A stretch of DNA of 64,000 bases from Candidatus Multivorans sp. (GTDB taxonomy: Bacteria > Acidobacteriota > Thermoanaerobaculia > Multivoradales > Multivoraceae), in contig OZ242167.1 in NCBI GenBank assembly GCA_965205295.1, forward strand, positions 2,898,097 through 2,962,096, in the 5' to 3' direction. The position numbers and the translations under genes are program-made. The notes under the pieces were generated by a model. That model had not been told where the DNA came from, made no database searches, and saw only the letters and a program-made list of their open reading frames with translations. Position 1 is the stretch's first letter, and each line of letters begins with the position of its first letter. Positions 1,721-33,930 of the stretch are shown one piece after another.

Positions 1721-2773
1721 ATGGAGTACCGCATCCTGGGACGCACCGGCGTGAAGGTCGCGCCCCTCTGCTTCGGCAGCGACAACTTCGCCGATCCCAC
1801 CCCGGCGCCGGAGTGCGTGCGGATGCTGGAAACCGCCATGGACGCCGGCATCAACCTGATCGACACCGGCGACGTCTACGCCGAGGGCGAAGGCGAGCGG
1901 ATCATCGGCCGGGCACTCAAGAACAACGGCCGGCGACACGAGTTGCTGATCGCCACCAAGGTCGACCACGGGCGCCGTCTCGTGGGCGAGAGCGTGACCG
2001 ACTACACCGGCAGCATCGGCCCCAACGAGTACGGCCACTCGCGCCTCAACCTGATCCGCGCCTGCGAGGGATCGCTCCGCAGGCTGCAGACCGACTACAT
2101 CGACCTCTACCAACTGCACCGCCCGTCGCCCGAGATCCCGTTCGACGAGATCCTGAGAGCGCTCGACGACCTGGTGCGGGCCGGCAAGATCCGCTACATC
2201 GGCTGCTCGACCCACCCGGCCTGGATGGTCGCCGAGGCCGTGATGACGAGCGAACTGAAGGGCTACGCCCGCTTCGTGTGCGAGCAGCCGCCCTACAACC
2301 TGCTCGACCGCCGGATCGAGAACGAGCTCATCCCCGTCTGCCGGCGCCTCGGCCTGGGCGTGATCACCTGGGCGCCGATGGCGATGGGCGTGCTCGCCGG
2401 CCGCTACCTGAGCGACTCGGACTACCCGGAGAACTCACGGGCGGCCCTGCGCGGCGGCTTCTACGCCGACCGCGTCACCCGCGCCGGTATCGAAGTCGGC
2501 CGCGAGTTCGCCCGCATCGCCGCCGACTCGGGGTTGACCCCGGCCCAGCTCGCGATCCTCTGGTCCAAGGACCAGCCGGGCATCACCGCGCCGCTGATCG
2601 GACCGCGCACGCACAAGCACCTGGAGGACCTGTTGCCGGTGCTCGAGATGTCGTTGACCTGTGAGCAGCGGGCGGCCTGCGATGCGCTGGTGCCCCCGGG
2701 CAGCGTCGTCGCCGACTTCCACAACACGGCGGACTGGATGAAGATGACGGTTCTTCCACCAGCCGGGAACTGA
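1721..2773 (+). CDS. aldo/keto reductase (AKR, Tas-like)
   Basis: MEYRILGRTGVKVAPLCFGSDNF, IDTGDVYAEGEGERIIG and the AKR C-terminal region LIGPRTHKHLEDLL are present. A close paralog lies at 32846..33892. Confidence 0.85.
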   Translation: MEYRILGRTGVKVAPLCFGSDNFADPTPAPECVRMLETAMDAGINLIDTGDVYAEGEGERIIGRALKNNGRRHELLIATKVDHGRRLVGESVTDYTGSIGPNEYGHSRLNLIRACEGSLRRLQTDYIDLYQLHRPSPEIPFDEILRALDDLVRAGKIRYIGCSTHPAWMVAEAVMTSELKGYARFVCEQPPYNLLDRRIENELIPVCRRLGLGVITWAPMAMGVLAGRYLSDSDYPENSRAALRGGFYADRVTRAGIEVGREFARIAADSGLTPAQLAILWSKDQPGITAPLIGPRTHKHLEDLLPVLEMSLTCEQRAACDALVPPGSVVADFHNTADWMKMTVLPPAGN

Positions 2774-2852
2774 ATCCGCATGCGCGTCTCGAAACACCCT
2801 CGGCCTTTGATGCAGTTGCCTCTGCCGTAGGCTGAATCCGCATGCGCGTCTC
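2771..2852 (+). repeat. 20-bp perfect direct repeat (TGAATCCGCATGCGCGTCTC) at 2771-2790 and 2833-2852; the second copy contains the start codon of the downstream gene, and the first copy opens a 16-codon upstream ORF
   Basis: Seen directly in the sequence: copy 1 starts at the AKR stop codon, copy 2 spans the ATG at 2842. The uORF at 2780..2830 encodes MRVSKHPRPLMQLPLP. Confidence 0.6.
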
Positions 2853-3906
2853 CAACGTAGTCCACGCCGTCGACACCCACGTCTGCGGCGAGCCCGGACG
2901 GGTGATCGTCGGCGGCGTCCTCGACGTCCCCGGGGCGACGATGTTCGAGAAGATGCGCTACCTCGAAACGGAGGCCGACGAACTCCGGCTGCGCATGCTG
3001 CGCGAGCCGCGCGGCTATCCGGCGGCGAACTGCAACCTGATCCTCCCGGCCACCCATCCCGATGCGGTCGCCGGCTACGTGATCATGGAGCAGGTCGAGT
3101 ACCCCGGCATGTCGGGCACGAACACGATCGCCGTCGCTACCGTGCTGATCGAGACCGGGATGGTGGCGTCAACGGAGCCGCTCACCGAACTCACCCTGGA
3201 GTCGCCCGCCGGCCTGATCCAAGTGCGCGCCGAGGTCGAGCGGGGCAAGGTGAAGCGGGTCGAGTTCAAGAACGTGCCGGCCTTCGCCGTCCATCTCGAC
3301 GCCGAACTCGAAGTGCCGGAACTCGGCAAGGTCACCGTCGATGTCGCCTACGGCGGCATGTTCTACGTCATCGCCGACGCGGATCAGGTCGGCCTCACCC
3401 TGGCGCCCGAGGAAGCCGCCGACGCCGCCCGGGTCGGCGAGATGATCAAGGCCGCCTGCCAGGAGCAGCTTCCCGCGCCCGTCCACCCGCTGAACCCGCA
3501 GATCCGCGGCGTCACGATCGGCCAGCTCTCCGCGCCGCCGCTGACATCAGGCGCCGACCGGCGCAACACGGTCATCGTGTCGACCGGCACGCTCGACTGG
3601 AACAAGCCGCTGACCTGGACCGGGGCGCTCGACCGCTCACCTTGCGGCACCGGCACCTGCGCCAAGATGGCGGCGATGTGGGCCAAGGGCGAGCTGCCGC
3701 TCGGCCAGGACTTCGTCCACGAGGGGATTCTGGGCACGACGTTCACGGGCCGCATGATTCGGGAGACTCGGGTCGGCGACTACGCGGCCGCCGTCCCGAC
3801 GCTGGCGGGGACGGCATGGATTACCGGCTTTGCCCAGTACGTGGTCGACCCGGAAGACCCGTTCCCCAACGGCTTCACGGTCGGCGACATTTGGGGCGGG
3901 CACTAG
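2842..3906 (+). CDS. proline racemase family enzyme (4-hydroxyproline epimerase / trans-3-hydroxy-L-proline dehydratase-like)
   Basis: MRVSNVVHAVDTHVCGEPGRVIVGG N-terminus; the family signature DRSPCGTGTCAKMA (second catalytic Cys position) is present. The first catalytic position appears to be Thr (PGMSGTNT). Confidence 0.8.
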   Translation: MRVSNVVHAVDTHVCGEPGRVIVGGVLDVPGATMFEKMRYLETEADELRLRMLREPRGYPAANCNLILPATHPDAVAGYVIMEQVEYPGMSGTNTIAVATVLIETGMVASTEPLTELTLESPAGLIQVRAEVERGKVKRVEFKNVPAFAVHLDAELEVPELGKVTVDVAYGGMFYVIADADQVGLTLAPEEAADAARVGEMIKAACQEQLPAPVHPLNPQIRGVTIGQLSAPPLTSGADRRNTVIVSTGTLDWNKPLTWTGALDRSPCGTGTCAKMAAMWAKGELPLGQDFVHEGILGTTFTGRMIRETRVGDYAAAVPTLAGTAWITGFAQYVVDPEDPFPNGFTVGDIWGGH

Positions 3907-3944
3907 CGAATGACTTCAGGAGTGAGTTGTCAGGAGGAGAGTTG

Positions 3945-4694
3945 ATGAGCGAAGACAGAGTGATGGTGGTCACCGGGGCCTCGAGCGGCCTCGGCGCCGA
4001 GGTTTCGGAGCACTTCGCGCTCCAGGGCTACCGCGTCGCCATGAACTACCTGATCGAGCCCGAGGCGCAGGCAACCTTCGACCGCATCGCGGCGAAGCTG
4101 GACGACGCCGACCGGCTGATGAAGGTCCAGGCCGACGTCGCCAACCGGGAGCAGGTGCGCGCCATGTTCGACGCCGTGGTCGAGCGGTTCGGGCGGGTCG
4201 ACGTGCTGATCAACTTCGCCGGCATCAACCGCGACGCGCCCTTCGTCGAGATGACGGACGCGATGTGGGACTCGGTCGTCTCCGCGCACCTGCGGGGCCA
4301 CTTCGTCTGCTGCCAGGAGTACGTGTTCCACAACCCGGACCGGCCCGGAGCGATCATCAACCTGGGCGCCGCCTGCGGCCAGATCGGGCGTAAGAACGGA
4401 GCCAACTTCTGCAGCGCCAAGGGCGGCGTGATCGCCCTGACCAAGTGCCTGGCGCAGGAACTGGCGCCGCGAATCCGGGTCAACTGCCTGGTGCCCGGCT
4501 CGGTCCGGACCCGGGAAGTGATCGACCGCTACGACCTGGAGACCGAGCAAGGCCTGGCTAAGGAACTGGCCTCCCTGCCCATGGGGCGGTTGGGCGAGTT
4601 CGAGGACATCACCAGGATGGCCGAATGCATGATCGGCGCCGAGTTCACCACCGGCGCCACGTTCTACGCCAACGGCGGCCAGTACATGCATTGA
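3945..4694 (+). CDS. short-chain dehydrogenase/reductase (SDR)
   Basis: ATG at 3945 is preceded by AGGAGGA at 3932-3938. TGASSGLG Rossmann motif, NAG motif (INFAGIN), and a C-terminal SDR fold. The long 3642 start in the ORF track is rejected. Confidence 0.85.
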   Translation: MSEDRVMVVTGASSGLGAEVSEHFALQGYRVAMNYLIEPEAQATFDRIAAKLDDADRLMKVQADVANREQVRAMFDAVVERFGRVDVLINFAGINRDAPFVEMTDAMWDSVVSAHLRGHFVCCQEYVFHNPDRPGAIINLGAACGQIGRKNGANFCSAKGGVIALTKCLAQELAPRIRVNCLVPGSVRTREVIDRYDLETEQGLAKELASLPMGRLGEFEDITRMAECMIGAEFTTGATFYANGGQYMH

Positions 4695-12902: not shown

Positions 12903-14654
12903 ATGAGCCGGCATCCGGCGCTCGCACTCGCCATCCTCCTCGCTGCCTGCGGCCAACCTGACCACCCCACCTCCGCCCCGCACCCACCCATCTTCATCGA
13001 CGCCGCCCGTGGCGCGAACCTCGACTTCGTCTACTTCAACGGCATGTCCGGCGAGCACTACTTCAACGAGATGATGGGCGGCGGCGCGGCCCTGCTCGAC
13101 TTCGACAACGACGGCGACCTCGACCTCTACCTCGTCCAGGGCACGATGCTCGGCCGCGATCGTTCGCTCGAAGACGCGCTCTTCCCGCCGCCGAAGGACA
13201 CGCCGCTCACCGACCGCCTCTACCGCAACGACCTGGAGCCGCCGGCCGGGGCCAACGCCGCGAGTCGTCCCCGCTTCACCGACGTCACCACAGCAAGCCG
13301 CATCGCCGCCAATGGCTACGGCATGGGCGTCACCACCGGCGACTTCGACAACGACGGCTGGACAGACCTCTACGTCACCAACTTCGGCGCCAACCAGTTG
13401 CTGCGGAACCGGGGCGACGGCACGTTCGAAGACACAACATCGGCCTCCGGAGTCGACGACCCGCGCTGGTCCGTCGGCGCCACCTTCTTCGACTTCGACC
13501 GCGACGGCTGGCTCGACCTCTACGTCGGCAACTACGTCGACTACTCGCTCGCTACCCACACCCCGTGCCCGCTGGCGAGCGGCGCGCTGACCTACTGCGC
13601 CCCCGGCGCCTACCGGCCCGTGCCGGACAGCCTGTTCCGCAACCGCGGCGACGGCACGTTCGAGGACGTGTCGTTGCCGTCCGGGATCGGCCGCGAACCG
13701 GGCGCCGGCCTGGGCGCCGTCGCCGCCGACTTCAACGGCGACCGCTGGCTCGACCTGTACGTCGCGAACGACCTGATGTCGAACCGCCTCTGGATCAACC
13801 GCGGCGACGGAACCTTCGCCGACAACGCCCTGCTCGCCGGCGTCGCCGTCAACCGGGAGGGCCAACCCGAGGCCGGCATGGGCGTCGACGCCGGAGACTT
13901 CGACGGCGACGGCGATCCCGACCTCGTGCTAGGACACCTGGAACAGGAGACGAACACCCTCTACGTCAACGGCGGCGCCGGCCTGTTCCGGGACCAATCG
14001 GCGTCGTCCCAACTTGGGCCGCCGAGCCTGCCGTTCACTGCCTTCGGCATCGGCTGGATCGACTACGACAACGACAGTTGGCTCGACGTGCTCGCCGTCA
14101 ACGGCGCCGTGATCGGCATCGACGCGCTGATCCGCGCCGGCGATCCGTACCCGCTGCGGCAAGCGAACCAGCTTCTGCGCAACCTCGGCAACGGCTCCTT
14201 CGACGAGGTCACGCCCGAGGCTGGCGCCCTCTTCCAGTCGGCCGAAGTCAGCCGCGCCGCCGCGTTCGGCGATGTCGACAACGACGGCGACCTCGATGTC
14301 GTCGTCGTCAACAGCAACGGGCCCGCCCGCCTGCTTCTCAACCAAGTCGGGCAGGACCGCTCCTGGCTGGGCTTGAGGCTCGTAGCCCACAACCGCGACG
14401 CGCTGGGGGCGCAGGTCCTCGTCCACCGGCAGGGCGCGCCGCCGATCTGGCGCCACGTCCACACCGACGGCAGCTACGCGTCAGCCCGCGATCCGCGGGT
14501 GCTCGTCGGCCTCGGGCACGGCGACGGCGCTGAGGTCGGTCACGTCGAAGTCCGCTGGCCGGACGGTACGGCGGAGCGGTGGACGGATGTGCGCGTCGGC
14601 GGGTACCAGACGCTGGTCCAGGGCGAGGGGGAGGCGATCGGCCGGCGTCCCTGA
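12903..14654 (+). CDS. CRTAC1-family protein (FG-GAP/VCBS repeats + ASPIC/UnbV C-terminal domain), lipoprotein
   Basis: The ORF track start at 12888 is TTG; ATG at 12903 gives MSRHPALALAILLAACG. Repeated GDFDNDGW/ADFNGDRW/GDFDGDGDPD motifs and a C-terminal VEVRWPDGTAERW block. Confidence 0.8.
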   Translation: MSRHPALALAILLAACGQPDHPTSAPHPPIFIDAARGANLDFVYFNGMSGEHYFNEMMGGGAALLDFDNDGDLDLYLVQGTMLGRDRSLEDALFPPPKDTPLTDRLYRNDLEPPAGANAASRPRFTDVTTASRIAANGYGMGVTTGDFDNDGWTDLYVTNFGANQLLRNRGDGTFEDTTSASGVDDPRWSVGATFFDFDRDGWLDLYVGNYVDYSLATHTPCPLASGALTYCAPGAYRPVPDSLFRNRGDGTFEDVSLPSGIGREPGAGLGAVAADFNGDRWLDLYVANDLMSNRLWINRGDGTFADNALLAGVAVNREGQPEAGMGVDAGDFDGDGDPDLVLGHLEQETNTLYVNGGAGLFRDQSASSQLGPPSLPFTAFGIGWIDYDNDSWLDVLAVNGAVIGIDALIRAGDPYPLRQANQLLRNLGNGSFDEVTPEAGALFQSAEVSRAAAFGDVDNDGDLDVVVVNSNGPARLLLNQVGQDRSWLGLRLVAHNRDALGAQVLVHRQGAPPIWRHVHTDGSYASARDPRVLVGLGHGDGAEVGHVEVRWPDGTAERWTDVRVGGYQTLVQGEGEAIGRRP

Positions 14655-29302: not shown

Positions 29303-30244
29303 ATGGCACTGAGAAAGGCGGGTTTCGATGAACTCGCCGTCTCCGAACTGAAGATCAAGCTGCGAGCGGGACTGAACCCCGGTGACTGGCAGCACAAGGG
29401 CGATCTCATCTTCCAGGCGCTCGCGAAGAGCAAGCGGCCGGTTGTACTCGCTGTCGACGAGCTTCCCATTCTCGTCAGCCGGTTGCTGAAGGGGAGTGAC
29501 CAGCGCACTACCGCAGAGCGAACTCAGGCAACTGAAGAGTTCCTGAGTTGGCTGCGCAAGAACGCCCAAGCCCACCGAGGGCGGATCTGTCTGATCCTCT
29601 CCGGCAGCGTCGGCCTCCACCCCATACTCCATCAAGTCGGGTTGACAGCCCAGGCGAACATCTACACCCCCTTCGATCTGAGGCCCTGGAACCAGGAAAC
29701 GGCGACCGACTGCCTCGCCGAGCTGGCGGTGACGTACAACCTCAACCTCTCCCAAGAGGTCCGGGCCAAGATGTGCCGGCACCTGCGCAGCCTGGTACCG
29801 CACCATGTGCAGCAGTTCTTCGACCACCTGCACGAGCACCTGCGGCGCCACCGTCGCCATACTGCCTCGCTCGAGGACGTGGCTCATGTGTACGAGCAGG
29901 AGTTGCTTGGCGTTCGCGGTCAAACGGACCTTGACCACTACGAGAGCCGGCTCAAGGTGGCCTTGGACTCGGAGGGCTACAAGGCTGCACTCGAACTTCT
30001 GACCGAGGCCGCGACGAATGACGGCCTACTTAGCGGCGAAGCCCTCGCCCGTTACAACGTCGACTACGAACGGACTACCTCTATTCAATATGTGTTCCAC
30101 GTCCTCGAGCACGACGGCTATCTTGAGCCGTCGGCAGACGGTCATCGATTCATATCGGGCCTGGTCGAGGACTGGTGGCGAGCCCGCCACGCCCAGCACT
30201 TCGTACCGATTGCTGAACGCGGGCTCTCCAGGGGGACGAACTGA
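29303..30244 (+). CDS. ATPase-like protein lacking a P-loop (Walker B/sensor region only), paralogous to the NTPase domain of the downstream gene
   Basis: RBS GGAG upstream of the ATG at 29303. PVVLAVDELPILVS (Walker-B-like), then RICLILSGSVGLHPIL and TPFDLRPWNQETATDCLAE. The same motif order occurs in the downstream protein (LVLLVENLN...RIALLASATS...LAPLDTDECMILWE). No GxxxxGK[ST] anywhere. Confidence 0.5.
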   Translation: MALRKAGFDELAVSELKIKLRAGLNPGDWQHKGDLIFQALAKSKRPVVLAVDELPILVSRLLKGSDQRTTAERTQATEEFLSWLRKNAQAHRGRICLILSGSVGLHPILHQVGLTAQANIYTPFDLRPWNQETATDCLAELAVTYNLNLSQEVRAKMCRHLRSLVPHHVQQFFDHLHEHLRRHRRHTASLEDVAHVYEQELLGVRGQTDLDHYESRLKVALDSEGYKAALELLTEAATNDGLLSGEALARYNVDYERTTSIQYVFHVLEHDGYLEPSADGHRFISGLVEDWWRARHAQHFVPIAERGLSRGTN

Positions 30245-32844
30245 TGACCGTAGCGACGCGGAAGTTCAACCCGGGATTCCTGACCGAGGACGCACTCGTA
30301 GCTTCCTTTTGCGTACGCACCCGCGAGTTCGAGTCGATCGTCGAGACCCTCCGCGGATGTACCGGGAACTCGAACCAGCACCAGATCGTCATCGGACCGC
30401 GCGGCAGCGGCAAGACGACGCTGCTCCTCCGCGTCGCTGCCGAGATCGGCCGCGACGTCGAACTCGCCCGCAACTTCTTCCCGATTCGATTCGCGGAGGA
30501 GAGCTACGAAGTCTCAACCGCCGGCGAGTTCTGGCTCGAGTGCTTGGCCCAACTCGCCGAGCAAGCGCCTCAAGACAAGGATGAGCCGGACCTGAGTCGA
30601 ACGCTCAAGGAACTGCGAAGTGTCGAAGACGATCAGCTCCTCGCGGATCGTTGCCTCGGAACCCTGCTTGACTACTCCGACCACCAAGGGAAGCGCTTGG
30701 TCCTCCTCGTCGAGAACCTGAACATGATGTTCCGGGACATTGTCGATCCCGATGCGGGCTGGAGGCTGCGTCATACCCTCCAGACCGAATCCCGAATCGC
30801 GTTGCTGGCCAGCGCCACGAGCCGGTTCGGCGAAATTGACAACCCCGACAGTGCCCTCTACGAACTCCTCCGCGTCCACACGCTGGCGCCTCTAGACACC
30901 GACGAATGCATGATCCTCTGGGAAGCAGAATCGGGCGAGTCCCCATCACGCGAGGAGGTCCGACCCTTGGAGATCCTGACCGCCGGCAGCCCACGCCTGC
31001 TGGCGATCGTCGCCCGGACGGGCGCAGGCAGGTCTCTGCGGGACCTGCTGGATCACCTCCTCGATTTGATCGATGACCACACCGAGTACTTCAAGAGCCA
31101 CATCGAGGCGCTTCCGGCGCAGGAGCGCCGCGTCTACCTGGCTCTCGCCGAACTCTGGGAACCGGCGACGACGAAGGAGGTCGCAGGTCGAGCCCGCCTA
31201 GACACGAACAAGTGCAGCGCACAACTCAAGCGCCTGTCCGACCGCGGCGCAGTACGAGTCGTCGGCGGCTCATCACGCCGGAAGCAGTTCTACCTGACGG
31301 AACGGCTCTACAACATCTACTACCTGCTTCGGCGCCATCGAGGCCTGGACCGGCCGGTTCGGGCGCTCCTCCGATTCATGTCGTCGTACTACACAGGCTT
31401 CGAATTGGTGACGGTGATGACTGAGTTCGTCAAAGACACCATCAGACCCCGAACAAGAGTGAACGCCTTGCGAGCCGCGGCGTTGGAACAGCTACCGGAC
31501 TTGGCCAACGCCGAACTCGGGGCGCCCGGATGCACGACAAGCCGCGAACAGGCGCTGCTGAGGCTCGTGGCCGCGTCCGGCCAAATCGCCTACTACCGAC
31601 GCCTCGACCGCCCGGAGGAAGCGCTTGGCGCTTGCGAGGCGGCGCTCACCGCCTTTCAACCCGGCGGCCTTCCAGGGAGATTCAAGTCCGCTCGAACCTT
31701 GAGCGTAAAGGCAGACCTGCTCCGAAGCCTGAGCCGGCACGAAGAAGCCATCGCCGTATGCGATGAGGCCCTGAGGCTTTCGGAACCCGGTGAACACGAG
31801 GTTGCCGCCGCACATGACTTCTTCAACGCCGCGATAGTGGATGTCCTTCACACGAAGGCCACCTCGCTTTGCGAAGTTGGCCGCAACGAGGCCGCAGCCG
31901 ACGCCTACCTTGAAGTCGAGCGTCGATTCGGCGAGAGCGAGAAGATGTCCCACAGAATGGACGCGGCCGCCGCCTTGATCAGCAGAGCCATGATTCTGGA
32001 CGACATGGGCGGTGGCCAAGAGGCTCTGAGCCAGTGTAGTGCGGTTCTTGATCGATTCGGTGCAGTCGGCCAAGCGGAGATGGAGGAGTGGATGGGCTTT
32101 GCGCTGCTGATGAAGGGAGATCTCCTCGACCGCTCGGATAGGCCGAAAGAAGCCCTGGTCGCTCTCGATCAAGCGCTACGGCGATTCGAGAACAGCGACC
32201 TCCCCAAAGCCGACGATTCCGTCCTCGCTACCTTCGCGGCAAAGGGAGCTCTACTCTGGAAGCTGGGGGAAGAAGACGCTGCACGAGCCGCCTTCAACGA
32301 CGCCCTAGAGCGCCTGAGAGGCGAGCAGGCCGATGGCGCCGCGGATTGGCGAGCCAGGGTACAACTCCTGCGGGGCAGTCTGGAGTTGGACTGCAAGGAG
32401 TACGAGAGCGCCCGGAAGGCCGCCAGCGAGGTGTTGGCTCACGACCCCGACGGCGATCCCCAGCTCCGCAGCCGGGCTTTTCTGCTCGGCGCTCGATCCG
32501 CTCTGTTCGACACTCCCGCAGCAGCCGAGAGCGATCTCGCAGCCGCCCTAGACCTGCTGTCGGCCCTGGATTCTCTTCCAGTCGAGACGTTCGACGCTCT
32601 CGCCGAGGCCGCGGTCGAACTCGGTCCGGCCCGCGTCCTCAAGCTGATCGAGGGCTCGGCTTCGGCCGAGTCGCTTCTTCCGCTCACGACGGCGCTGAAA
32701 CTGGAACTTGGACGCGCGCCACGCGTCGCACGCGAGGTGGAGGAAGTAGCCAAGGACATTCGACGAAGCTTGGCGACGGCGAGACGGAAGCGCGGTGCTA
32801 CCGACGAAGAGAACCCAAGACCCGAACGTGAGGAGCCTTCCTGA
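30244..32844 (+). CDS. P-loop NTPase (AAA+/STAND-like) with winged-helix domain and long C-terminal TPR-like array
   Basis: Walker A IVIGPRGSGKTTLLL and Walker B RLVLLVENLN. A wHTH-like segment (PAQERRVYLALAELWEPATTKEVAGRARLDTNKCSAQLKRLSDRGAVRVV). ~500 aa of TPR-like helical repeats. Start overlaps the upstream stop (TGATG). Confidence 0.65.
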   Translation: MTVATRKFNPGFLTEDALVASFCVRTREFESIVETLRGCTGNSNQHQIVIGPRGSGKTTLLLRVAAEIGRDVELARNFFPIRFAEESYEVSTAGEFWLECLAQLAEQAPQDKDEPDLSRTLKELRSVEDDQLLADRCLGTLLDYSDHQGKRLVLLVENLNMMFRDIVDPDAGWRLRHTLQTESRIALLASATSRFGEIDNPDSALYELLRVHTLAPLDTDECMILWEAESGESPSREEVRPLEILTAGSPRLLAIVARTGAGRSLRDLLDHLLDLIDDHTEYFKSHIEALPAQERRVYLALAELWEPATTKEVAGRARLDTNKCSAQLKRLSDRGAVRVVGGSSRRKQFYLTERLYNIYYLLRRHRGLDRPVRALLRFMSSYYTGFELVTVMTEFVKDTIRPRTRVNALRAAALEQLPDLANAELGAPGCTTSREQALLRLVAASGQIAYYRRLDRPEEALGACEAALTAFQPGGLPGRFKSARTLSVKADLLRSLSRHEEAIAVCDEALRLSEPGEHEVAAAHDFFNAAIVDVLHTKATSLCEVGRNEAAADAYLEVERRFGESEKMSHRMDAAAALISRAMILDDMGGGQEALSQCSAVLDRFGAVGQAEMEEWMGFALLMKGDLLDRSDRPKEALVALDQALRRFENSDLPKADDSVLATFAAKGALLWKLGEEDAARAAFNDALERLRGEQADGAADWRARVQLLRGSLELDCKEYESARKAASEVLAHDPDGDPQLRSRAFLLGARSALFDTPAAAESDLAAALDLLSALDSLPVETFDALAEAAVELGPARVLKLIEGSASAESLLPLTTALKLELGRAPRVAREVEEVAKDIRRSLATARRKRGATDEENPRPEREEPS

Positions 32845-32845
32845 C

Positions 32846-33892
32846 ATGCAATACCGAACCCTCGGCCGCACCGGCCTGAAGGTCTCGCCGCTCGGGCTCG
32901 GCACGAGCAACTTCGGCGATGTGACGCCCGAGGACGAGGCGCGGCGGATCATCGAGCGGACGCTCGACTCCGGGGTCAACCTGATCGACCTCGGCCACAT
33001 CTACGGCGATGGCAAAGCCGAGCGGATCGTCGGCAGTGTGCTCAAGGAGAGCGGCCGGCGGCACGAGGTCCTGATCTCGACCAAGATCTACCCCGGCGAG
33101 TTCGATGACGACACTGGTCTCGCCCGGTCGGAGCATGTGCCGGGGCACAACGCGAACGAGCAGGGACTCTCCCGGGCCGGGATCCTCAACGCCTGCGACG
33201 CGGCCCTGCGCCGCCTGCAAACGGACCACATCGACCTGTACCAGACGCACCGGCCGGACTTCGGCATCCCCATCGACGAGACGCTGCGTGCGTTCGACGA
33301 CCTGGTCCGGGCCGGCAAGGTCCGGTACATCGGCTGCTCGACCTACCCCGCCTGGAGCGTGATGGAAGCGCTGATGGTGAGCGAGCTGAAGGGGTACGTC
33401 CGCTTCTCGTCCGAGCAGGCGCCCTACAACCTGCTCGACCGGCGGATCGAGAACGAGCTGATCCCGCTCTGCCGCAAGCACGGTCTCGGCATTCTCGCCT
33501 GGGCGCCCCTCGGCATGGGCGTGCTGGCGGGGAGGTACTCCGATGCGGCGAAGTACCCGGAAGGCTCCCGCGCCGACCTGCTCGGCAAGTACTACGCGCG
33601 GCGGGTCACGAAGCGCGCCATCCAGGTCGGCGTCGAGTTCGCCAAGCTCGCGGCCGAGGCCGGGATCACGCCGGCCCAGCTCGCGATCCTGTGGTGCAAG
33701 GACCAGCCAGGGATCACGGCGCCGCTTATCGGCCCGCGGACCTGCGAACACTTCGACGAACTCGTCGCCGTCCAGGAGATGACGCTCGACCCCGAGATCG
33801 CAGCCGCCTGCGACGCCCTGGTACCGCCCGGGAGCGCGGTGTCGGACTTCCACAACACCTCGGGGTGGATGAAGACCCAGCTCACCTGGTAG
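32846..33892 (+). CDS. aldo/keto reductase (paralog of 1721..2773)
   Basis: ATG at 32846 with AGGAG at 32831. MQYRTLGRTGLKVSPLGLGTSNFGD. Highly similar in sequence and length to the first AKR. Confidence 0.85.
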   Translation: MQYRTLGRTGLKVSPLGLGTSNFGDVTPEDEARRIIERTLDSGVNLIDLGHIYGDGKAERIVGSVLKESGRRHEVLISTKIYPGEFDDDTGLARSEHVPGHNANEQGLSRAGILNACDAALRRLQTDHIDLYQTHRPDFGIPIDETLRAFDDLVRAGKVRYIGCSTYPAWSVMEALMVSELKGYVRFSSEQAPYNLLDRRIENELIPLCRKHGLGILAWAPLGMGVLAGRYSDAAKYPEGSRADLLGKYYARRVTKRAIQVGVEFAKLAAEAGITPAQLAILWCKDQPGITAPLIGPRTCEHFDELVAVQEMTLDPEIAAACDALVPPGSAVSDFHNTSGWMKTQLTW

Positions 33893-33930
33893 GAGAATCC
33901 ACCGAGCGGTTATGGCAGTATTGCCGCGTT

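Follow-up and report, generated by a model that had tools for sequence, protein, structure and literature searches.

A probable scar of an old duplication at the junction of an aldo-keto reductase gene and a proline-racemase-family gene in Candidatus Multivorans

Attenuators of the trpL, hisL and leuL type place a short open reading frame (ORF) with several codons for one amino acid 5' of a gene. In classical leader-peptide attenuation expression rises when the amino acid is scarce, a logic that fits biosynthetic rather than catabolic genes. We examined a direct repeat between an aldo-keto reductase (AKR) gene and a proline-racemase-family gene in the window, the whole 64,000-nucleotide stretch of Candidatus Multivorans DNA that was analysed. 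This locus resembles such attenuators in having a short ORF with several proline codons 5' of a gene. It differs from them in that it has no tandem regulatory codons and no terminator or antiterminator, does not form a 5' leader, is unconserved, and belongs to a catabolic-type rather than a biosynthetic cluster.

Short ORFs are also able to deliver ribosomes, translational coupling weakens with distance, and the nearest start is used (reviewed in PMC12548453). The MIRU-borne ORFs of mycobacteria (Supply et al. 1997, cited in PMC12548453) and synthetic bicistronic designs (BCD) share with our locus an ORF of about 16 codons that runs from an upstream stop to a downstream start and holds the weak Shine-Dalgarno (SD)-like element of the downstream gene, which lacks a strong SD of its own. 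Their ORFs overlap the downstream start at a spacing of -4 or -1, whereas a gap of 6-11 nt is seen here. The present element, in addition, is not interspersed or mobile and appears to have arisen from the gene's own start.

Small tandem-duplication relics offer a third comparison. Like them, the locus has head-to-tail copies in each of which one gene ends and its neighbour begins, together with unduplicated orthologues and independent collapse products, including a one-period deletion in one relative (L003). Unlike them, only 21-24 nt of the roughly 60-nt unit can still be aligned in the window, the expected AKR-tail half is without demonstrable homology, and the scar is unusually long-lived, being common to several species-level lineages. 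The finding is largely ordinary: a decayed remnant, common to several related uncultured Acidobacteriota and lost in others. Taken as a whole, the explanation that the repeat is the scar of an old, small junction duplication and not a regulatory leader is probably correct. Understanding of the pathway and of general regulation is unchanged by it.

The repeat and its flanking genes

The junction separates genes two and three of a co-oriented cluster, M28 peptidase-AKR-racemase-SDR-TRAP. Its features, all on the forward strand, are listed below; L002 is a related locus, and lineage A is the window's own.

1721..2773 (+): AKR gene, Pfam PF00248 (E = 1.6e-72); its stop, TGA 2771-2773, lies in repeat copy 1
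2770..2790 (+): repeat copy 1, CTGAATCCGCATGCGCGTCTC; AKR stop, spacer ATCCGC and relic racemase start ATG 2780
2777..2784 (+): palindrome CGCATGCG at the core of copy 1; in lineage A only, predicted pairing with the copy-2 core (2839-2846)
2780..2803 (+): putative decayed copy of racemase codons 1-8; the L002 equivalent retains 31/34 nt, and other lineages have ATGCGCGTCTCCAACGCACCTCAC-like relics
2780..2830 (+): short ORF, 16 codons plus TAG, encoding MRVSKHPRPLMQLPLP; probable by-product of the relic start, possible ribosome relay
2804..2831 (+): insert interior, of uncertain origin; CTGCCGTAGG (2822-2831) is kept in every insert-bearing locus
2832..2852 (+): repeat copy 2, CTGAATCCGCATGCGCGTCTC, with the real start ATG 2842 inside; period of 62 from copy 1
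2842..3906 (+): proline-racemase-family gene, 354 aa, Pfam PF05544 (E = 4.9e-114), domain from residue 10

Sequence reading and a pattern search both found TGAATCCGCATGCGCGTCTC in exactly two copies, at 2771-2790 and 2833-2852. When up to 3 mismatches were allowed, 0.03 matches were expected by chance, and two matches arose in 0 of 100 shuffles. The sequence-only reading had described a 20-bp repeat; its existence and both positions were confirmed, and its length was corrected, the exact repeat being one base longer at 21 nt. Identity between the copies reaches 23/24 over 2770-2793 versus 2832-2855. No longer exact direct repeat within 300 nt occurs anywhere in the 64-kb window. The unit consists of the AKR stop, a 6-nt spacer, the racemase ATG and 3.7 codons, and the two copies lie head to tail: copy 1 carries TGA 2771-2773 and an ATG, and copy 2 carries TGA 2833-2835 and ATG 2842.

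The AKR protein ends in DFHNTADWMKMTVLPPAGN; relatives conserve its sequence up to WMKM, and the tail beyond is hypervariable. Against NCBIfam, the racemase fell below every equivalog cut-off (best score 340 versus a required 550, for trans-3-hydroxy-L-proline dehydratase). Exact-protein look-ups of the window's racemase, AKR and SDR matched no record, and a literature search on 'Candidatus Multivorans' returned nothing. The racemase start is ATG 2842, and the aligned start codon is used in all fetched homologues examined. A racemase frameshift or an alternative start at ATG 2780 was rejected: ATG 2780 and ATG 2842 do not share a frame, and it is at 2842 that the N-terminus conserved in all homologues begins. 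Gene callers should retain ATG 2842 as the start of the racemase-family gene. ORFs on the minus strand of this region were set aside as G+C-rich artefacts.

Related loci and the origin of the repeat

The window was compared with 22 other close loci that have the same gene order. At 14 of these the AKR stop lies -1 to 6 nt from the racemase ATG and there is no repeat. These tight loci keep the M28 peptidase-AKR-racemase order, with SDR and TRAP next wherever the fetched flank reaches. The window's insert of about 60 nt was present at the remaining eight (L001, L002, L009, L012, L081, L082, L161 and L016), in four lineages. A metagenome scan had added only two close relatives, L081 and L082; a protein-database route added L161, which bears the insert, L162, which is tight, and L163-165, which represent a third genomic context.

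Both ends of the insert are conserved. The ATGCGCGT relic at its 5' end is invariant in all nine insert-bearing loci (window included), and the 3' end reads CTGCCGTAG(G)CTGA in every one of them; a conserved CTGCCGTAGGCTGA block terminates the insert just upstream of the real ATG. The common 5' and 3' ends therefore indicate a single origin of the insert. Third codon positions of the flanking genes are about 45% divergent across the four lineages, about 55% being invariant. The relic resembles the racemase start most fully in L002, where 31/34 nt, counted from CTGA to the end of pseudo-codon 8, are identical to the real start and cover its first 8 codons; L001, L009, L012 and L016 retain the first 13-16 of 16 relic nt.

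These likenesses make it very likely that the repeat was left behind by a local event that duplicated or rearranged the racemase 5' end. The narrower reading, a one-step tandem duplication spanning the junction, is somewhat favoured. Under this model, the ancestral AKR gene would have stopped a few bases before the racemase-family ATG, in a tight, translationally coupled arrangement. A tandem duplication of about 60 nt over the junction would then have placed a second stop, a spacer, an ATG and the first racemase codons directly after AKR, leaving the real racemase gene about 60 nt further downstream. Substitutions and indels of 1-2 nt would have caused the upstream copy to decay into an arbitrary short ORF of 15-19 codons, the frame of which, in the window's lineage, happens to read four CCN codons. 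At least four species-level lineages would have kept the insert arrangement. Gene conversion may have produced the perfect 21-nt identity seen in the window's lineage, which would then not be original; L002 shows signs of such conversion between its copies. The sequence-only reading had suggested, as a fallback, a recent local duplication. The duplication is borne out by the comparison and its recency is not, the insert being common to at least four species-level lineages.

A second route to the same structure is gene replacement, which we consider possible and rather unlikely. A racemase of paralogous or foreign origin, together with some 35 nt of its native 5' UTR (with GTAGGCTGR in it), would have been joined after resident codon 5-8, stranding the resident start behind the AKR stop; the upstream identity in the window's lineage would then reflect later gene conversion. 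In favour of replacement, racemases of 86-90% identity are found in at least three genomic contexts. At L018 and L020 it lies behind a divergent ABC substrate-binding-protein gene, with no AKR, and has (C/G)GTAGGCTGG or GATAGGCTGG upstream, so that a similar GTAGGCTGG motif precedes a racemase that has no AKR neighbour. However, L018 retains CTTCAAC, the lineage-C-specific relic codons, suggesting that L018 derives from an insert-bearing locus and not the reverse.

The spacers and the interior of the insert also bear on replacement. In lineages B, C and D the copy-1 spacer (GC, an overlap, and GCGAGC) differs from that of copy 2 (ATCCGC or GTTCCGC), as replacement would have it. Comparison of the interior (about 28 nt, from the relic codons to copy 2) with AKR tails gave no significant similarity, which also favours replacement, with shuffle p values of 0.05-0.99; this test has low power because the AKR tails are hypervariable. 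Replacement nevertheless requires an illegitimate join and a later conversion, where the 60-nt tandem duplication requires one step, and it sits poorly with the L003 deletion, which has the length of exactly one period and is both in register and in frame.

We also considered a small MIRU-like element, mobile or interspersed, that would target start codons and bring its own coupled ORF. Such an element would resemble the insert in size, in its position between coupled genes and in an ORF that bridges stop and start. The 5' part of the present insert, however, is recognisable as the racemase's own start. Neither the 41-nt interior nor the 72-nt unit has a second copy in the 64-kb window or across about 165 related loci, which total roughly 0.75 Mb. 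A MIRU-like repeat was rejected because no other copies were found in either set, and we regard this origin as extremely improbable.

Insert-bearing lineages are scattered and basal in the phylogeny. Twelve tight loci form a clade with L009 (100% bootstrap), and only 1% of replicates recover those 12 as monophyletic without L009. A second clade (100% bootstrap) unites the window, L001 and L002 with L003, which has no insert. Relative to the window, L003 lacks exactly one period (62 nt), deleted in register and in frame, and its AKR tail, ending in PPAVG, is encoded by copy-2-side sequence. In the tight clade the junction reads GCGCCTGAGCATGCGCGTCTCCAACG, which is that of L009 copy 1; the real start of L009 reads ATGCATGTCTCCCAC. 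Because the tight-clade junction matches L009 copy 1, collapse in that clade appears to have re-used the relic start. The best reading of these sequences is that recombination between the copies has collapsed the insert, on at least three occasions, into a tight junction, and both products, L003 and the tight clade, are consistent with such recombination. The locus would offer a clean natural case in which a junction micro-duplication was born, long tolerated, homogenised by conversion and repeatedly collapsed, with one collapse putting the relic start codon to use for a functional gene.

Proline content of the short ORF

The sequence-only reading gave the short ORF correctly: ATG 2780, TAG 2828-2830, four Pro in 16 residues and an end 11 nt before ATG 2842. 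Its frame differs from that of the racemase because 62 is not a multiple of 3. The same reading proposed that the peptide is a Pro-rich leader with translational attenuation, which would sense prolyl-tRNA or proline and attenuate the downstream proline-derivative gene. With four Pro among its 16 residues, the final one directly ahead of the stop, the peptide shows a nominal enrichment that is marginal (binomial p = 0.047 against a six-frame Pro frequency of 9.5% in a 67% G+C window). The Pro codons are scattered and none are consecutive, which speaks against a sensing role.

The orthologous short ORFs have 15-19 codons, are unrelated in sequence past codons 4-5, and stop at TAG or at a TGA 5 nt further on; indels account for the variation in frame and length among loci. 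The short peptides of L001 (MRVSNHLHLDAVASAVG), L002 (MRVSNVIHLDAGASAVG) and L016 (MRVLSALHRALRSSRAAVG) contain no Pro, and those of L009 and L012 contain two each. Orthologous junctions without the repeat and without conservation of the ORF were what the sequence-only reading had named as telling against its proposal, and both were found: the repeat is absent from 14 of the 22 other close loci, leaving most orthologous junctions with no short ORF at all, and the peptide is unconserved where the insert exists. Folding of the leader RNA, also proposed as a check, gave a stability no better than shuffles (z = 0.19).

A scan found no terminator-like site near 2771-2852, an Rfam search of the element gave no match, and an alignment fold showed no covariation (compensatory pairs 1/23). 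The element lies inside an operon between two genes and has no 5' leader position, and attenuation logic suits biosynthetic, not catabolic genes. Proline attenuation fails because the peptide is unconserved and there is no terminator, Rfam match or unusually stable fold. We regard a proline-sensing leader as a false lead that can be set aside, with only the slightest chance of being right.

Translational coupling across the junction

The position of the short ORF suggests how ribosomes might cross the scar. Ribosomes ending AKR at TGA 2771-2773 would restart at ATG 2780, the closest one at a distance of 6 nt. They would then translate the 16-codon ORF, terminate at TAG 2828-2830 and restart 11 nt downstream at ATG 2842, where the Shine-Dalgarno match is weak. 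The relic ORF would in this way relay the original translational coupling across the scar.

Both hops are short in all nine insert-bearing loci: the gap from the AKR stop to the relic ATG is -1 to 6 nt, and that from the end of the short ORF to the real ATG is 6-11 nt. The anti-SD duplex energy is -2.6 kcal/mol at ATG 2842 versus -10.3 kcal/mol at the next gene (SDR), and CTGCCGTAGG contains a weak SD-like AGG 10 nt upstream of the real ATG. The relic ATGCGCGT is invariant, as against about 55% of third codon positions among the four lineages. This 8-nt invariance, however, was noticed post hoc, has a crude p of about 0.01 and comes from four independent lineages only. A stop before the real start would be expected by chance in about two-thirds of cases because two of the three frames are closed by TAG or TGA anyway. 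Judged from these sequence features, a selected relay function, rather than mere tolerance, is conceivable and somewhat doubtful. If it exists, the gene's own duplicated start would preserve translational coupling across an insertion, on the principle seen in MIRUs and synthetic bicistronic designs.

A scar with no selected role has close to an even chance of being the full account. The racemase would then use its own weak ribosome-binding site (RBS) or long-range coupling, and the short ORF would be incidental, whether translated or not. The peptide, frame and length of the short ORF are unconserved, chance alone closes two frames in three, nothing stands out in the fold, and loci that lost the insert, at least three times on the reading above, retain the same gene order. 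Set against neutrality are the very weak SD match at the real start and the retention, in nine of nine loci and four lineages, of ATGCGCGT and the short stop-to-ATG gap while the rest decayed, both of which are suggestive only.

A more elaborate selected role was also considered. Here the relic ORF would be a coupling adaptor, its relic ATG, two-frame stops and RBS-proximal block having been kept by selection during the divergence of several species, and would pass ribosomes on in two short hops; in the window's lineage, the palindromic repeat core would in addition lock the real AUG until upstream translation. This combination appears unlikely. Were it true, it would be a naturally evolved, non-mobile equivalent of bicistronic design.

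The palindromic core raises the related possibility of RNA occlusion, in the window's lineage only. In the predicted structure, the core CGCAUGCG pairs 2777-2784 with 2839-2846 and hides the AUG of the racemase; a ribosome that either terminates on AKR or reads the short ORF would melt the stem and expose the start. An RNA-unfolding model of coupling is established (PMC12548453). The stem appears in both the minimum-free-energy (MFE) and centroid structures, where it occludes both ATGs. For the real AUG, the probability of being unpaired is 0.02-0.17 in L001 and about 0 in both L002 and the window, and about 6-8 inter-copy base pairs are expected in these three loci. By contrast, no such stem is predicted for lineages B, C or D, where at most 1.1 pairs are expected in L009, L012, L081, L082 and L016. 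Overall stability equals that of shuffles, covariation is absent, and pairing of this kind is an automatic consequence of any direct repeat of a palindrome. The stem was rejected as a general explanation because it is predicted only in lineage A, and occlusion within that lineage is quite unlikely.

The repeat and its gene neighbourhood

The intergenic region between the aldo-keto reductase (AKR) and proline-racemase-family (racemase) genes carries a direct repeat and a short ORF within the following gene order:

75-1691, M28 peptidase gene, first in the order and followed by the AKR gene
1721-2773 (+), AKR gene
ATG 2780 to TAG 2828-2830, short ORF encoding MRVSKHPRPLMQLPLP
2842-3906 (+), racemase gene (PF05544), between the AKR and SDR genes
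ATG 3945, SDR oxidoreductase gene, 3' of the racemase gene, with a strong GGAGGAG before its ATG
after the SDR gene, TRAP transporter genes DctQ, DctM and DctP

A pattern search allowing up to 3 mismatches, with 2400-3200 also read directly, found exactly two copies of the 20-mer, at 2771-2790 and 2833-2852; 0.03 matches were expected by chance, and 0/100 shuffles contained two copies. The copies are identical over 21 nt (CTGAATCCGCATGCGCGTCTC, 2770-2790 and 2832-2852) and match at 23/24 positions on extension, with a period of 62; a scan of the whole window found no longer exact direct repeat within 300 nt. Copy 1 begins with the TGA at 2771-2773, the AKR stop, and copy 2 contains the racemase start. 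The repeat, the short ORF and the 11 nt separating its stop from ATG 2842 were thus confirmed as described in the sequence-only reading. The other local exact repeats in the window (15-19 nt) all cluster at 13097-13810, for example CGACTTCGACAACGACGGC, with copies 150-245 nt apart (DFDNDG if in frame), and probably reflect a repeat-domain coding region.

"Proline racemase" is only a family label, because the protein scores under every NCBIfam equivalog cut-off (best, trans-3-hydroxy-L-proline dehydratase, 340 against 550). It reads MSGTN and SPCGTG at the two motifs bearing the family's catalytic residues. A 350-aa ORF overlapping the racemase 3' end (3642-4694) was rejected as an artefactual 5' extension: homology in relatives begins near 3945. 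The opposite-strand ORF 3930-4691 is conserved less (60-73% versus 77-93% in most loci). A second AKR gene, 61% identical to the first, lies at 32846-33910 (+), with its ATG 1 nt past the TGA of an 866-aa ORF (30244-32844), another tight junction.

Junctions in related loci

The loci whose junctions were read came from genomes (80), metagenomes (80) and protein look-ups (5). The nearest genomes are uncultured Acidobacteriota MAGs labelled Thermoanaerobaculia, Holophagales or 'Ca. Multivorans', with best matches at 95% amino-acid identity. The window and 22 close loci share the order M28 peptidase-AKR-racemase, and SDR and TRAP genes come next wherever the fetched flank extends to them. In 14/22 close loci there is no repeat, and the AKR stop and racemase ATG are -1 to 6 nt apart (tight loci: L003-L008, L010, L011, L013-L015, L017, L019, L052 and L162). 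An insert of the same architecture separates the two genes by 59-73 nt in the window and eight other loci, which form four lineages. More distant relatives (74-82% identity) have ordinary intergenic regions of 11-64 nt, several with a GGAG-type Shine-Dalgarno sequence.

Short ORFs of the insert-bearing loci (lineage; locus; peptide; stop; number of Pro)
A; window; MRVSKHPRPLMQLPLP; TAG; 4
A; L001; MRVSNHLHLDAVASAVG; TGA; 0
A; L002; MRVSNVIHLDAGASAVG; TGA; 0
B; L009; MRVSNAPHFDRLALP; TAG; 2
C; L012, L081, L082; MRVFNAPQADRLALP; TAG; 2
C; L161; MRVFNAPQAERLALP; TAG; 2
D; L016; MRVLSALHRALRSSRAAVG; TGA; 0

Each of these nine loci has a relic racemase start, ATGCGCGT..., at -1 to 6 nt after its AKR stop, and alignments place CTGCCGTAG(G)CTGA plus a 6-7-nt spacer ahead of the real ATG. 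The L002 relic agrees with the real start at 31/34 nt, counted from CTGA to pseudo-codon 8.

The sequence-only reading had proposed that the proline-rich short ORF acts as a leader peptide in translational attenuation. With a six-frame proline frequency of 9.5% as background, the four prolines in the window reach p = 0.047. Reading frames vary through 1-2-nt indels, within lineage A too, and the peptide that the short ORF encodes is not conserved. No terminator-like site was found near it, the fold of 2750-2880 was not better than shuffles (z = 0.19), an alignment fold showed essentially no covariation, and an Rfam search of the region gave no match. Both outcomes that the sequence-only reading had set as refuting its idea were seen, with orthologues lacking the repeat and the short ORF unconserved, and the attenuation interpretation is refuted. 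The other suggestion had been a recent local duplication; the repeat is best read as the scar of an old duplication where two coupled genes meet.

Origin and loss of the insert

In the simplest model of its origin, a tandem duplication of about 60 nt would have arisen across a tight junction, with a duplicated unit comprising the AKR tail, stop, spacer, ATG and first racemase codons. The model is weakest at the interior of the insert (~28 nt), which showed no significant similarity to any AKR tail; both the sequence and the length of these tails are hypervariable, which left the test with low power. An interspersed element of the MIRU type is an unlikely source: neither the window nor ~0.75 Mb of related loci holds a second copy of the interior.

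Alternatively, a paralogous racemase could have replaced the resident one, bringing its own 5' UTR. L018 (3001-4071) and L020 (3001-4062) fit such a replacement: their racemases, 86-90% identical to that of the window, have no AKR upstream and stand behind a divergent ABC substrate-binding-protein gene, yet are preceded by GTAGGCTGG or ATAGGCTGG, with the TGA of the motif reading TGG in both. However, L018 keeps CTTCAAC, the relic codons specific to lineage C, which suggests that it derives from an insert-bearing locus. The racemase gene appears to have changed its context repeatedly. In L018, two additional small ORFs (83 and 117 aa, 1860-2464) separate the substrate-binding-protein gene from the racemase, and a paralogue similar to the 32846-33910 AKR lies directly 3' of the racemase. 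In a third context (L163-L165, ENA and Logan contigs), an 88% identical racemase with a 5' region unrelated to the insert lies by itself, with an amine-oxidase-like gene on one side and a large opposite-strand HEAT-repeat gene on the other.

Neighbour-joining trees were built for the AKR and racemase genes, and their concatenated alignment was bootstrapped. Twelve tight loci (the tight clade: L004-L008, L010, L011, L013-L015, L019, L052) grouped with L009, and the window with L001, L002 and L003, each at 100% bootstrap; the twelve without L009 were monophyletic in just 1% of replicates. The end blocks common to all copies of the insert indicate that it arose once. Given its scattered, basal distribution, this implies that it would have been lost independently at least three times: within the tight clade, in L003 and in L017. 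Two products of collapse are explicit. One is L003, which departs from the window by exactly 62 nt, one period, in register; its AKR now has the end ...PPAVG*, for which the copy-2-side sequence GCCGTAGGCTGA codes.

The other is the tight-clade junction GCGCCTGAGCATGCGCGTCTCCAACG, which has the sequence of L009 copy 1 and not that of the real L009 start (ATGCATGTCTCCCAC); a collapse of the duplication would therefore have joined the relic start to the functional gene. The first 15 nt of the tight-clade racemase equal the L009 relic copy, and the N-terminus reads MRVSN in the tight clade, MHVSH in L009 and MHVSQ in lineages C and D; the collapse apparently swapped the first five racemase codons for those preserved in the relic. 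Relic codons 6-8 of L002 (GTGATTCAC) resemble the real gene, whereas all other lineages are GCACCTCAC-like there, which indicates copy 2 to copy 1 gene conversion in lineage A. Such conversion may lie behind the perfect 21-nt identity in the window despite the old duplication; across the four lineages, invariant bases occupy only ~55% of third codon positions.

Translation of the racemase gene

The real racemase start has a weak anti-Shine-Dalgarno match (-2.6 kcal/mol); the SDR gene reaches -10.3 and the relic start -4.3. AKR termination and the racemase are evidently coupled in relatives with a tight junction. Coupling efficiency drops with growing stop-start distance, terminating ribosomes take the nearest start, and short ORFs, MIRU ORFs and bicistronic designs are able to 'deliver' ribosomes (review PMC12548453). 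A ribosome finishing the AKR at 2771-2773 would first meet ATG 2780, translate 16 codons and stop at 2828-2830, 11 nt from ATG 2842. It is plausible that this incidental short ORF relays ribosomes from the AKR stop to the racemase start: 9/9 insert-bearing loci keep the geometry (upstream gap -1 to 6 nt, downstream gap 6-11 nt), and the relic ATGCGCGT is invariant among them. This evidence is suggestive rather than decisive: it comes from no more than four independent lineages, and chance alone closes two of the three frames.

Through the palindromic core CGCAUGCG, the two copies are predicted to pair and bury the real AUG in lineage A, with no such pairing predicted in lineages B, C and D. 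In lineage A, a ribosome positioned on the AKR stop would melt the stem between copy 1 and copy 2.
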